From Cryomorphaceae bacterium (GTDB taxonomy: Bacteria; Bacteroidota; Bacteroidia; Flavobacteriales_D; Cryomorphaceae): 64,000 bases of DNA. The stretch lies in assembly GCA_047633195.1 (NCBI GenBank), contig JBLIEU010000004.1, forward strand, positions 6,145 through 70,144. Reading direction: 5' to 3'. A program made the translations under genes and the position numbers. Below are positions 23,270-61,808 of this stretch, piece after piece. The number at the start of each line of letters is the position of its first letter. The stretch's first letter is position 1. A model generated the notes under the pieces. The model searched no databases. It saw nothing but the letters and a program-made list of their open reading frames with translations, and had not been told where the DNA came from.

Positions 23270-23425
23270 AAGTGCGAATATAAAACGGAATTGTGGGCAA
23301 TGGTTGCTGGGAGAGTAAGTTAAATTAAGTGAAAGGACTTCAGCCTCTGGGTGCTGTAAGGGCTGCCATTGGACCAAAAAAAAAGTGAGAAACTTTGCTC
23401 TCGCTCTGTTTCTCACTCCGTTTTG

Positions 23426-23507
23426 TACCCGGGGCGGGAATCGAACCCGCACTCCCGAAAGAACTGGATTTTGAATCCAGCGCGTCTACCAGTTCCGCCA
23501 CCCGGGC
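23426..23507 (-). tRNA. tRNA-Leu(CAA)
   Basis: GCCCGGG acceptor, D arm TGGCGGAACTGGTAGACGCG, anticodon arm CTGGA-TTCAAAA-TCCAG, long variable arm, GCGGG-TTCGATT-CCCGC, discriminator A. Confidence 0.96.
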
Positions 23508-57482: not shown

Positions 57483-57953
57483 TTAGTCTTTCTTTGAAAG
57501 AGGTGCCTTTCGTCTGATGCTTTGTTCGAGCGAAATCATGGTTTCAGTGCGCTGTATGCCATCTACCTTTTGAATTTTTTCATTCAGTACTTGTCTTAGG
57601 TTTTCAGTATTTCGACAAACCACTTTCAAAAAGATGCTGTAGCCACCTGTTGTGTAGAATGCCTCAACTATTTCTTCAATGGCGTTGAGCTGCTTTATCA
57701 CATCTTGGTAAACGGCTCCTTTGTCCATGAAGACTCCTATAAACGCAGTAAGATCGAAGCCCAGCTTCGCAGAGTCAACGACAATTTCAGTTCCTTTTAC
57801 CACTCCCGCCGCTTCCATTTTTTTCATACGAACATGGATGGTTCCAGCCGAGACAATGAGTTTTTCGGCGATTTCAGTGTATGGAGTGCGGGCGTTAGCA
57901 CTTAATATTTCTAAAATCTGACGATCGAGTTTATCGATTTGATAATTCATCAT
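57483..57953 (-). CDS. asnC: Lrp/AsnC family transcriptional regulator, AsnC-like
   Basis: YQIDKLDRQIL, NARTPYTEIA, VSAGTIHVR, LGFDLTAFIG, YTTGGYSIF, IQRTETMISL; close to the E. coli AsnC pattern. Confidence 0.85.
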   Translation of the reverse strand: MMNYQIDKLDRQILEILSANARTPYTEIAEKLIVSAGTIHVRMKKMEAAGVVKGTEIVVDSAKLGFDLTAFIGVFMDKGAVYQDVIKQLNAIEEIVEAFYTTGGYSIFLKVVCRNTENLRQVLNEKIQKVDGIQRTETMISLEQSIRRKAPLSKKD

Positions 57954-58082
57954 TGACTATTTATTATCTAAATATAGTATTCGAAATGAATGGGTGATAA
58001 AATAGTGATTCTGTAAAAATACATCCATTATGTAACGAATATAGCAATGAAAAGGTATAACCTCTAAATTAGTCCTAATCCT

Positions 58083-58199
58083 TGTAGGGTGATGAAACCG
58101 GCAGACATGCCCTCCTGTCTCGAGGGTGGAGGTAAAGAATAAATTCTGATCTCGATCGGAACTAACTGCTCCATGGAGGTTCGAATCCTTCTCCTACAG
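58083..58199 (+). ncRNA. tRNA-like RNA, GUC (Asp) anticodon, 48-nt variable arm (copy 1)
   Basis: Acceptor TGTAGGG/TCCTACA plus G73; D arm ATG-AAACCGGCAGA-CAT; anticodon arm CCCTC-CTGTCTC-GAGGG; T arm GGAGG-TTCGAAT-CCTTC; no encoded CCA. Confidence 0.85.
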
Positions 58200-58206
58200 C
58201 TCAAAA

Positions 58207-58241
58207 AAAAGCGACATCCGACTAAGTCGAATGCCGCTTTT
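58207..58241 (+). terminator. Intrinsic terminator after tRNA-like copy 1
   Basis: AAAAGCGACATCCGAC-TAA-GTCGAATGCCGCTTTT. Confidence 0.7.
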
Positions 58242-58284: not shown

Positions 58285-58575
58285 TTACTTTGTTACAGTG
58301 GTCATTGTTGGTGTGTATAAACCGAAGGTGAGACCTGCGACAAGACCATTTACGAATGAATGTTTGTGTTCTATTGTATAGTCAGTTGCGCCACCTGCAA
58401 GCTCTGCAGCATCAGATACTCCGACAGGAGCCAATCCAAAAACTACAAAGTGATTCCAAGCAGTAACTTCTTGGTTGCCTTGAGCACCGTTTCCGACTAC
58501 TATCGTATACGTATAGCAAGAGCTGAGCAAAAGGATCCCAGCAAAGGCAAAGAATAAACTCTTTAAATGTTTCAT
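58285..58575 (-). CDS. Bor/Iss-like small lipoprotein (copy A)
   Basis: Lipobox LLSSC, WNHFVVFGL, SFVNGLVAGLTFGLYTP; start at ATG 58575 by alignment with copy B. Confidence 0.8.
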   Translation of the reverse strand: MKHLKSLFFAFAGILLLSSCYTYTIVVGNGAQGNQEVTAWNHFVVFGLAPVGVSDAAELAGGATDYTIEHKHSFVNGLVAGLTFGLYTPTMTTVTK

Positions 58576-58584
58576 TGAACTATT

Positions 58585-58648
58585 TTTTTCTCCTACTCGT
58601 ATGGCTTTTCGGTTTCGCCTCGTTTGAAATGGTTTCAGAACTCCACTT
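58585..58648 (-). promoter_or_regulatory. Conserved leader upstream of Bor-like copy A
   Basis: 64 nt nearly identical to 59212-59274. Confidence 0.6.
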
Positions 58649-58682
58649 TGTTTTTTGATCCTTAAAATCACTCTTAGAATCG

Positions 58683-58911: not shown

Positions 58912-59202
58912 TTACTTGGTAACCGTAGTTGTTGTCGGAGTGTAAAGACCGAATGTAAGCCCGCCTACTAATCCGTTTACAAACGAACGTTGTATCTGAA
59001 CATCATAGTTTTCAGCTTCGCCCGCCATTTCTTTTGGATCAGAGACTCCAACCGGAGCAAGACCTGCAATAAGGTAGTGGTTCCAAGATTTGGTTTTTTC
59101 ATTTCCTTGTGCACCGCTACCTATTGATACCGAGTAAGTGAAGCAACTGCTCAGTAAAAGCACCCCTGCGAAGGCAAAAAACAAACTTTTTAAGTGTTTC
59201 AT
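58912..59202 (-). CDS. Bor/Iss-like small lipoprotein (copy B)
   Basis: Lipobox LLSSC, WNHYLIAGL, SFVNGLVGGLTFGLYTP; paralog of copy A. Confidence 0.8.
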   Translation of the reverse strand: MKHLKSLFFAFAGVLLLSSCFTYSVSIGSGAQGNEKTKSWNHYLIAGLAPVGVSDPKEMAGEAENYDVQIQRSFVNGLVGGLTFGLYTPTTTTVTK

Positions 59203-59211
59203 CGATTTATG

Positions 59212-59274
59212 TTTTTCTCCTACTCATATGGCTTTTCGGTTCCGCCTCGTTTTAGTGGTTTCAGAACTCCACTT
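59212..59274 (-). promoter_or_regulatory. Conserved leader upstream of Bor-like copy B
   Basis: 63 nt nearly identical to 58585-58648. Confidence 0.6.
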
Positions 59275-59549
59275 GCAGAGGCAATGATAATAATACTATT
59301 CGCAAAAAGAGCCTTGAATTGTGAATTCTATATTACTTATTGGGAAGCCCTATGTATTGATTTCGAACAGTCGTTCAACACGAACGAATTTGATTCTACT
59401 AACCTGGGATGAATGGCCTTCGCAAGATATTTACACTTTCGTCGTAGCTCAGAATTCTCAGTCTTCCCTATCGATCGAAGACTTATGACTTACCGCCCTT
59501 CAAGGGTTCCTCCTAGATCGCAGCCAGTAATGTCAGCGGTGATCTTTAT

Positions 59550-59828: not shown

Positions 59829-59942
59829 TGTAGGGTGATGAAACCGGCAGATATGCCCTCCTGTTTCGAGGGAGGAGGTAAAGAATAAACCGGCCTTAGG
59901 CGGACTAACTGCTCCATGGAGGTTCGAATCCTTCTCCTACAG
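59829..59942 (+). ncRNA. tRNA-like RNA, GUU (Asn) anticodon, 45-nt variable arm (copy 2)
   Basis: Same acceptor and T arms as copy 1; D arm ATG/TAT; anticodon arm CCCTC-CTGTTTC-GAGGG. Confidence 0.8.
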
Positions 59943-60152: not shown

Positions 60153-61808
60153 TTACTCGTAAGTGCTGTATTGAATTTGGAATATAATGTTGGTGATTGG
60201 AATATTTTCTGTGTTCAGAGGATTGAATGCTTGCTTGACTCTTGTGAAGGTGATTTGTCCCTTGAGGTAGGCGTAGCCTTGAGGACTGACCTCATACTTG
60301 TAAAAGAGGCTAAACTCTGGGTCTGGGTCAAAATCTTCATAATCGTTGTCAGTTGATTGATAAGTTGCAGTACCAGCAAATGGGCCATCCAAGAAGCCTT
60401 CCGTAAGCTCGACTGTTGGGGGTTCTGTGAGTCCCAACTCAAAACCGACTACTTCTATAGGATCATCTCCGACCTCCACATTATTCGGAGCAGGAATATA
60501 AACTTTTAAAATCCTTTGGAAAGTACCGTTCGACGTTTCTACCTGCTGTATGCCCTGTATAACGCGATACGCATTTTCTGGAGTCGGAAACAGCCCTTGA
60601 GTAGGCGCTATCGTAAGTGCATCAGGGACAAAAAGGGTATCTGGGTCATTGGAATTTCCTGGTGCCACTGATCGGTTAAAGAAGAATTGATCGGTAAAAC
60701 CAGAACCGTCGATGTCCGCAACTAAGAATTGTTCGCAAGGTTTACAAGTTGGACCTCCGCAGTCAATTTCAAGTTCAAACAACTCTACATTCTGGATAAG
60801 GTCGTGACAAGAGATACACTGAGGACATGATCCATTATCGTATGGCGGTATAAAGTAATCAACGCAATCTATTTCAAACTCAGGGCCGTTTTGAATTCCA
60901 TCTGAGCAAGTGGCACAAGGAGGACAGTCGGTTGTAGGATCGTCGTCACAATCTACTCCAGTTTCATCACCATCTTGATAGCCATTACCACAAGCGGGTA
61001 CAGGATCACAAGGAGGGCAGCCGTTGTTATCAATTTCGTCACAGTCGATACCTGTTTCAGTGCCGTTTTGCAATCCATCGAAGCAAGTTGGGATAGGACA
61101 GTCAGGACAAGATGTTTGGAAATCGGCGTCGCAGTCAGGCCCAGTCTCCACCACTACTATATATCCCTGAGGATTCTGGGGTGTAGGATCGATGTACTCA
61201 ATGTGAATGTTTCGAATACCATCGTTACAGGTAGGAGTGGGGCAATCAGGACAACCGGGAGCTCCGCAATCGATACCCGTTTCTTGACCGTTCTGAAGAC
61301 CATCTCCGCAAGTGGGTGGAAAGCAAGTGGTAGAGCAATTCGTCCCTCCGCAGTCTACACCCTGTTCGTCACCGTTTTGGATACCGTCATTGCAAGTGGC
61401 TACGCAGAACGTATCGCAAGGAACACCGCAGTCAACTCCTTGCTCTAGAACCAACCTCCAAAGCACGCCTCCAGCCATTCCAACGCTATCGTCCGAATTA
61501 AAGTCGGCCATAGTTAGGTTTGGGTCAAATTTCCAATGGGCGTTTTGAATATTGTCTTCGCAAGTTGCACACGGAACGCAATCTTCGCCACCACAATCGA
61601 TAAATTGCTCGGTACCGTTAAGCACTCGATCGTCGCAAGTAGGCAAACAATCGGGACAAGGACCACCGCAATCGATGCCTACCTCACCTTGATTTTTCAC
61701 TTCGTCGAAGCAGGTAGGCTCAATTCTATTATCTTCATTTCTGCAAGAGCTTAATGCAAATGCCACAGAAGCAGCGATGAAGAGGAGTCTCAGTATTCTA
61801 AATTTCAT
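60153..61808 (-). CDS. Lipoprotein with 10 Cys-rich repeats (TC.DG.QNG.E.G.DC...C..C)
   Basis: Lipobox ALSSC; repeats visible in the translation; non-repetitive C-terminal domain. Confidence 0.8.
   Translation of the reverse strand: MKFRILRLLFIAASVAFALSSCRNEDNRIEPTCFDEVKNQGEVGIDCGGPCPDCLPTCDDRVLNGTEQFIDCGGEDCVPCATCEDNIQNAHWKFDPNLTMADFNSDDSVGMAGGVLWRLVLEQGVDCGVPCDTFCVATCNDGIQNGDEQGVDCGGTNCSTTCFPPTCGDGLQNGQETGIDCGAPGCPDCPTPTCNDGIRNIHIEYIDPTPQNPQGYIVVVETGPDCDADFQTSCPDCPIPTCFDGLQNGTETGIDCDEIDNNGCPPCDPVPACGNGYQDGDETGVDCDDDPTTDCPPCATCSDGIQNGPEFEIDCVDYFIPPYDNGSCPQCISCHDLIQNVELFELEIDCGGPTCKPCEQFLVADIDGSGFTDQFFFNRSVAPGNSNDPDTLFVPDALTIAPTQGLFPTPENAYRVIQGIQQVETSNGTFQRILKVYIPAPNNVEVGDDPIEVVGFELGLTEPPTVELTEGFLDGPFAGTATYQSTDNDYEDFDPDPEFSLFYKYEVSPQGYAYLKGQITFTRVKQAFNPLNTENIPITNIIFQIQYSTYE

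Follow-up and report, generated by a model that had tools for sequence, protein, structure and literature searches.

In the indirect pathway to asparaginyl-tRNA, as covered by the accessible text of PMC4206432 and PMC9976931, an ND-AspRS and the amidotransferase GatCAB form a transamidosome that acts on tRNA-Asn; the examples are Thermus, Deinococcus, Bdellovibrio and Staphylococcus. The accessible part of PMC4206432 describes a relaxed AspRS in Bdellovibrio, lists Bacteroidetes among the genera that keep AsnRS, GlnRS and GatCAB without asparagine synthetases, assumes that tRNA-Asn is the carrier in those genera, and counts asnB in Chitinophaga, Dyadobacter and Spirosoma (Table S1). According to the accessible sections of PMC9976931, aspartate identity is determined by G34, U35, C36, C38 and G73, with G2-C71 as a minor element; the amidotransferase uses U1-A72 as its determinant and G1-C72 and U20a as antideterminants; and A73 is the key determinant for leucine, with Leu-to-Ser switches being known for G73. 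The same sections describe two dedicated tRNAs that are kept from EF-Tu: tRNA-Sec, on which the amino acid is made, and the non-proteinogenic tRNA-Gly of Staphylococcus aureus.

The window analysed here, i. e. the whole stretch of 64,000 nucleotides, contains a tRNA-like RNA gene with an Asp anticodon and a giant variable arm (the giant-arm RNA), a second copy of it, and a divergent gene for an AsnC/Lrp-family regulator (Table 1). A sequence-only reading of the locus had claimed a complete cloverleaf, and the acceptor stem, G73, the D stem, the loop CU-GUC-UC and the T loop are all in place, as are the 48-nt variable region and U37. The pairing check of copy 1 found no non-standard pairs; U8 and G9 follow the acceptor strand, and the D arm is of the Leu/Gln type. 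The terminator that had also been claimed was borne out in part: there is a plausible hairpin (the segment 58204-58250 folds at -14.2 kcal/mol), but its U-run is broken and it was not among the calls of the terminator scan. Otherwise, the scans for sigma-70 promoters and terminators near copy 1 were uninformative. That annotation pipelines would miss the gene proved correct for both programs used: With default settings, ARAGORN reported the tRNA-Leu at 23425-23507 as its sole find in the window, and relaxed settings gave no valid call for copy 1 either. Rfam returned nothing over copy 1 except a chance match on the opposite strand (E 4.8). The Rfam 15 models (tRNA RF00005, tRNA-Sec, tmRNA and others) matched neither copy 1 nor four long homologues, and only a short-arm relative of 76 nt scored as a tRNA (40.8 bits) in this comparison.

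Table 1. Features of the giant-arm RNA locus (positions in the window)
Feature	Position	Strand	Details
AsnC/Lrp-family regulator gene	57483..57953	-	divergent from the RNA; best NCBIfam model AsnC PRK11179
Divergent intergenic region	57954..58082		129 nt, A+T-rich
tRNA-like RNA gene, copy 1 (giant-arm RNA)	58083..58199	+	U1-A72, G2-C71, GUC, U37, C38, G73
Acceptor stem, copy 1	58083-58089/58192-58198		7 bp, G·U at 7-66
D stem, copy 1	58092-58094/58106-58108		3 bp, 11-nt loop
Anticodon stem, copy 1	58110-58114/58122-58126		loop CU-GUC-UC
Anticodon GUC, copy 1	58117-58119		U37 at 58120, C38 at 58121
Folded variable domain	58127..58174	+	48 nt; basal stem, covarying pairs, internal loop, distal hairpin
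Basal stem, variable domain	58128-58131/58169-58172		4 bp
Two covarying pairs, variable domain	58136-58137/58166-58167
Conserved asymmetric internal loop	58138-58143/58162-58165		resembles UAA/GAN
Variable distal hairpin	58144-58161
T arm, copy 1	58175-58191		loop UUCGAAU
G73, copy 1	58199		then one C (C74 encoded at 58200)
Terminator-like hairpin	58207..58241	+	A-run before, broken U-run after; not called by terminator scan
Duplicated segment	59615..59959		duplicate of 57869-58216; 88.8% over 349 columns
Second copy	59829..59942	+	114 nt, anticodon GUU, weakened D stem

Folded alone, copy 1 reaches a minimum free energy of -34.3 kcal/mol (z -1.05), and the comparative structure has -26.4. Since single-sequence folding does not favour the cloverleaf for copy 1, the evidence for the fold is comparative. 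Across 96 distinct homologues, 98.3% of the cells are paired and 17 of the 29 pairs show two-sided changes, with shuffled and slid controls scoring far below; this alignment had been fitted to the model, and the anticodon stem, which the search pattern already contained, is biased towards invariance. The idea of a conserved tRNA mimic or specialised tRNA is thus upheld by 96 distinct sequences that keep the structure. Structure-keeping homologues exist and no known family is matched, the two points at which the sequence-only reading had exposed itself to refutation by sequence. It had also denied that this is an ordinary decoding tRNA. The 84%-complete genome shows 24 tRNA genes, none of them for Asp or Asn; in each of the five carrier genomes checked, ordinary tRNA-Asp genes accompany the RNA, and we therefore conclude that it is not the decoding tRNA-Asp.

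The giant-arm RNA is widespread. In 41 related genomes, a search at the DNA level detected 20 loci including the window's own, all of them full copies of 111-125 nt. When the genome collection was scanned with an exact pattern, 3 of its 64 parts gave 122 loci, corresponding to an estimated 3,100 or so stretches overall. Among the matches listed (80 records), all come from Bacteroidota, i. e. from Chitinophagales, Cytophagales, Saprospiraceae and some MAGs labelled 'Flavobacteriales'. The cultured genera with the RNA are Chitinophaga, Dyadobacter, Algoriphagus, Cyclobacterium and Spirosoma, and the homologues measure 96 to 204 nt. Sampling 151 genomes of the phylum, with emphasis on other classes, gave a full copy in only a single genome outside the class, where it too lay next to asnC; this search scored 24 candidates per genome, so that copies could escape, and counted only matches of at least 77 bits and more than 100 nt. 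Our first model had cross-matched ordinary tRNA-Leu and tRNA-Ser, and such cross-matches reach up to about 60 bits. Five viral contigs match as well, one of them within a tRNA cluster. One phage copy (L027:1470-1586) follows an ORF that looks PhoH-like, and the next 100 nt or so appear structured and were not called by ARAGORN; another (L030:1451-1587) ends a cluster of six tRNAs and has a disrupted 5' end. BLAST found no match for a phage copy among named phages and none for a bacterial copy among plasmids. The RNA commonly occurs in tandem, with two to five copies per array (L163, L112, L328-L329, L331, L033, L225). The 76-nt relative lies on the minus strand (L239:1501-1576) in a genome with AsnA and GatB (G263); it has U1-A72, G73, the same D arm and the loop CU-AUC-UC, and is possibly an ancestor or a reduced form.

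The fold of the variable region goes beyond the first reading of the sequence, as does the second copy. Across the family, the internal loop places CUAA opposite RAUAAA and has a covarying closure on one side only; in the UAA/GAN internal loop, as described in the accessible text of PMC2615604, UAA faces GAN and the loop is closed by Watson-Crick pairs at either side. The distal part of the variable region carries a GGGUUGACCAC-type motif in 90 of 163 distinct sequences, both window copies being without it, and the motif is unpaired in the consensus fold of 11 sequences that carry it. The motif contains GAC, which might pair with the anticodon; the copies of genome G357 with an AUC anticodon lack it. 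Paired tandem copies often differ in having the motif, which hints at a division of labour.

Several positions of the RNA bear on its identity. U1-A72, G2-C71, U8, G9, U48 and G73 are invariant in all 96 sequences, and none of them was part of the search pattern. A C after G73 is encoded in 175 of 176 copies, and the whole CCA in 19. Position 34 is G in 91 and U in five of the 96 sequences, and A in the three copies of G357, whereas C36 is found throughout the family, with GUU confined to the window's copy 2. The variants at position 34 keep U35, C36 and C38, giving UUC in L033, L145 and L175 and AUC in L328-L329; as an anticodon, UUC would specify Glu. A pyrimidine occupies position 37 in 94/96, a count biased by the pattern, but finds made by the model alone have G or U there; U33 is kept in 83 and replaced in 13 of the 96. 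The pyrimidine at 37 and the variable U33 argue against decoding. At 51-63, 89 of the 96 sequences have A-U; this is also the pair of tRNA-Gln, whereas tRNA-Asp has G-C there. A-U at this position binds EF-Tu weakly. The D loop is longer by one base than that of this genome's tRNA-Gln (four bases separate G19 from position 23), and position 20a is mostly A. True tRNA-Asp begins with G1-C72 in 5/5 carriers. Most of the sampled tRNA-Asn genes keep U1-A72; in the GatB genomes G104, G263 and G314 we found tRNA-Asn genes with G1-C72 (L258, L262 and L265, respectively), and G104 is a carrier with GlnRS, AsnRS, GatA and GatB. As judged from these letters, the giant-arm RNA is a chimera that combines the marks for AspRS and the mark for GatCAB on a Leu/Gln-like body. 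A close origin from tRNA-Gln was considered and weakened: the tRNA-Gln of five other genomes share just U1-A72 with it.

The recurring neighbour of the RNA is asnC. In the window, the regulator scores 193.8 bits against AsnC PRK11179, below the cut-off of 227, and this is by far its best model. Of the loci L065-L144, those with at least 500 nt upstream number 71; in 49 of them, asnC is encoded on the opposite strand, with its start 125-313 nt upstream of the RNA. When 27 GatB-positive, pattern-negative genomes were searched, a close asnC turned up in one of them (G393), and there two RNA copies that the pattern had missed were found at it; three of six GatB-less genomes have asnC homologues without the RNA nearby. 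The intergenic region presumably holds both promoters and the AsnC sites. It contains one TAnnTTTG-type element (58065-58072, one mismatch), and this motif is known from Bacteroidetes promoters. In the upstream regions of homologues, a perfect element is present on the RNA strand in 95 of 163 cases and on the other strand in 33. Given the association with asnC and GatCAB, which the sequence-only reading had not noticed, its 'mimic or specialised tRNA' can be narrowed down to a role in asparagine metabolism.

The duplicated segment around the second copy holds a 5' stub of asnC, the intergenic region and the RNA. G002, a close relative, has one copy, with GUC; compared with it, copy 2 has four substitutions including GUC to GUU, and such a pattern suggests that it is probably drifting. 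A functional Asn version with GUU was considered for copy 2 and set aside, since GUU is just one among the four changes private to this copy, which lies in a duplicated segment. In a related contig in the public run X2, position 58127 is joined directly to 59874, and the stretch between the copies is therefore an insertion. It contains two DUF805 RNA motifs on the minus strand (Rfam RF03081, about 71 bits; 58586-58651 and 59213-59277), each directly upstream of a gene for a 96-aa Bor-family lipoprotein (PF06291; minus-strand ORFs 58285-58575 and 58912-59202). Further on, a minus-strand ORF (60153-61808) encodes a 551-aa cysteine-rich, repeat-containing, lipoprotein-like protein that has no Pfam match and is kept downstream of the RNA across relatives.

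The gene content of 261 genomes of the class was profiled for the RNA pattern, GatB, PRK09431-type AsnB, AsnA and GlnRS. The 51 carriers comprise 47 found by the pattern (degenerate in G383) and four from a second model run on 80 genomes; the unpublished genomes G258 and G317 enter the tally as single counts. Counted without regard to the tree, in which kin are not independent, GatB is present in 51/51 carriers and AsnA or an orthodox (PRK09431-type) AsnB in none, with 39 of the 261 genomes having AsnA or such an AsnB. The RNA pattern is absent from all 58 GatB-less genomes, and a model recheck of 20 of them was negative throughout. The 96 genomes with GlnRS are informative because GatCAB has no glutamine job there: The RNA is present in 29 of the 40 with GatB and in 0/56 without it. 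The 11 exceptions are nine members of family f84, G286 with a partial GatB, and G288. In f84, which has no RNA, all six genomes tested (G218, G250, G277, G302, G327, G411) encode a GatB-AspRS fusion, and a normal AspRS is kept as well. The locus in G218 (L230:1907-6624, G218:C19) has gatA followed by the 1,106-aa fusion, a single-chain transamidosome core, and the fusion carries a histidine at what we take to be the non-discrimination site. Family f19 splits cleanly: six genomes have the RNA and GatB and no synthetase, whereas three have AsnB and lack both the RNA and GatB, and the two of these three that were checked kept asnC and lacked the RNA. Families f17, f58, f73 and f89 show similar, less complete contrasts. 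GatA was found in 5/5 carriers tested; it was not found in the 84%-complete genome of the window, and two congeners have it. GlnRS was found neither in this genome nor in five relatives, and GatCAB therefore also serves glutamine here.

We lean, with modest confidence, towards the idea that the giant-arm RNA is a non-decoding carrier under the control of AsnC, on which AspRS loads aspartate and GatCAB amidates it to asparagine, which is then released for AsnRS. Its footing is the observed fold, identity marks, synteny and co-occurrence, from which the following steps are extrapolated. At low asparagine, AsnC would turn the RNA gene on, by analogy with asnC-asnA of E. coli. The transcript would be processed and receive its CCA end, as we propose because C74 is genome-encoded in nearly every copy. 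The ordinary AspRS would charge it through G34, U35, C36, C38 and G73 as well as G2-C71; with these ordinary Asp marks, no relaxed synthetase would be required. GatCAB would accept the charged RNA through U1-A72, which true tRNA-Asp lacks. Since asparagine on a GUC anticodon would misread Asp codons, the RNA would have to be kept off the ribosome, and the pyrimidine at 37, the variable U33, A51-U63 and the bulky variable domain might all contribute to this. Finally, it is tempting to speculate that asparagine leaves by hydrolysis or with the help of some further factor.

Several observations speak against such a carrier. The base at 20a belongs to a reported GatCAB antideterminant, in that case U20a; all tRNA-Asn genes sampled from the class, f84 included, carry U20a, and the rule may thus be loose here. 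The U or A at position 34 of some copies and the short-armed relative in an AsnA genome also count against it. Carriers have AsnB-like paralogues that score under the PRK09431 cut-off, and this genome has two, beside what look like polysaccharide genes. The asnB counted in Chitinophaga, Dyadobacter and Spirosoma (PMC4206432, Table S1) also speaks against it, as does the fact that neither GatA nor GlnRS turned up in the 84%-complete genome of the window. Moreover, 132 of the 163 GatB-positive, GlnRS-negative genomes have neither the RNA nor AsnA or AsnB, most of them as judged by the pattern only; in a model recheck of 56 GatB-positive, pattern-negative genomes, 52 stayed negative. These RNA-less GatB genomes may be auxotrophs, which is plausible because 27 of the 56 GatB-less GlnRS genomes also lack both synthetases. 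Alternatively, their single AspRS may be relaxed by analogy with that of Bdellovibrio, and this would make the RNA dispensable. An archaeal-type ND-AspRS was dropped as an explanation for the RNA-less genomes, as none of 80 tested had one. Comparison of AspRS sequences did not separate 13 carriers from 16 pattern-negative genomes with GatB (G393 among the latter is a carrier) except by one weak column, and a histidine at the non-discrimination site was seen in none of 31 aligned AspRS. All in all, about 160 of the 261 genomes have no recognisable asparagine route (132 with GatB, 27 without).

The same synteny and co-occurrence would fit a regulatory decoy or scaffold, the main rival, which we regard as rather unlikely: Asparagine would be made on tRNA-Asn by a relaxed AspRS and GatCAB, and the RNA would bind AspRS, GatCAB or AsnC and thereby tune this route, with no flux passing through the RNA itself. 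The many GatB genomes in which neither the RNA nor another route was found agree with it, as does the U1-A72 kept in most sampled tRNA-Asn genes, and the large conserved variable domain with the distal motif (90/163) suggests extra binding partners. However, the fixed G73 and the encoded C74 point to a charged 3' end, the tRNA-Asn of G104 has G1-C72, and the need for a second, fused AspRS in f84 suggests that the resident AspRS discriminates. A second rival is a charged, non-ribosomal donor that passes Asp, or Asn after the action of GatCAB, to a cell-envelope, lipid or protein acceptor. Dedicated tRNAs that escape EF-Tu, such as the non-proteinogenic tRNA-Gly of Staphylococcus (PMC9976931, accessible sections), provide the precedent, and the decoding features have been lost; yet the gene that recurs beside the RNA is asnC and not a transferase gene, and the absence of AsnA and AsnB from all 51 carriers would be left unexplained, so that we consider a donor improbable.

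A third rival is a conditional decoding or mistranslating tRNA that would insert Asp, Asn or Ser at GAY codons under starvation. Such a role draws on the intact T arm and the GG in the D loop, on the phage contigs that carry the RNA, one of them in a tRNA cluster, and on the serine identity that a long arm plus G73 can confer, Leu-to-Ser switches being known (accessible sections of PMC9976931). A purine at 37 is nevertheless missing in 94/96 sequences (a pattern-biased count, but finds of the model alone have G or U), U33 is replaced in 13/96, the total length reaches 204 nt, and canonical tRNA-Asp is present, and we would be surprised if the RNA decoded. Copy 2, which resembles a drifting duplicate, and the unremarkable single-sequence fold might suggest a non-functional remnant or the relic of an integration site; covariation over 96 sequences, invariant identity bases, conserved synteny and the strict gene-content pattern make this very improbable.

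No description of the RNA family was found in the literature searched, in which subscription journals are thinly covered, and the accessible text of PMC8450103, PMC7954030 and PMC8762117 makes no mention of the giant-arm RNA. What is new is thus an undescribed RNA family, large, present in cultured genera and missed by ARAGORN and Rfam, which we propose to carry a variant of tRNA-dependent asparagine synthesis. The carrier proposal offers testable answers to two questions: what many Bacteroidota that have AsnRS and GlnRS retain GatCAB for, and how asparagine is supplied without AsnA or an orthodox AsnB. If it is true, an RNA gene provides the carrier for the job of a biosynthetic enzyme, the dedicated gene of the pathway is an RNA, and a route is missing from metabolic models in which these bacteria figure as asparagine auxotrophs. 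Taken further, and only tentatively, much of Bacteroidota may make asparagine on a recyclable RNA cofactor: a chimera would replace the synthetase, a strict AspRS would charge it and GatCAB amidate it, the arm would bar it from the ribosome, free asparagine would be supplied under AsnC control, and phages would borrow the RNA. The RNA is also a natural scaffold, as variable-arm insertions of more than 100 nt are tolerated while the synthetase marks are kept.

Compared with known RNAs, the giant-arm RNA shares G34, U35, C36, C38, G73 and G2-C71 with bacterial tRNA-Asp(GUC); the differences are the first pair, U1-A72 rather than G1-C72, the D stem, which has 3 bp and goes with A15:U48, the pyrimidine at 37, and the variable region, whose length is 48 nt in copy 1 instead of 5. 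It resembles this genome's class II tRNA-Leu in D-loop length, A15:U48, G18G19, A20a and the geometry of the arm, and this genome's tRNA-Gln in the first three acceptor pairs and the frame of the D arm; unlike tRNA-Leu, it has G73 in place of A73, an Asp anticodon loop, and an arm with an internal loop and a large distal domain. tRNA-Sec differs in that it decodes via SelB and has a longer acceptor branch, and the tRNA-Gly of S. aureus in that it donates to peptidoglycan; to our knowledge, neither feeds the free amino-acid pool. In E. coli, asnC and asnA form a divergent pair, and here, too, an AsnC-like gene is divergent from its presumed target, but this target is an RNA gene and not a synthetase. 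With the tRNA-Asn of the indirect pathway, the giant-arm RNA shares U1-A72 and G73, the company of GatCAB where asparagine synthetases are missing, and the predicted chemistry. It differs in its giant variable domain and in its anticodon, GUC rather than GUU, with which a discriminating AspRS would suffice; it has a gene of its own, next to asnC, in cells that retain tRNA-Asn and AsnRS as well, and its product would not be usable directly for decoding.
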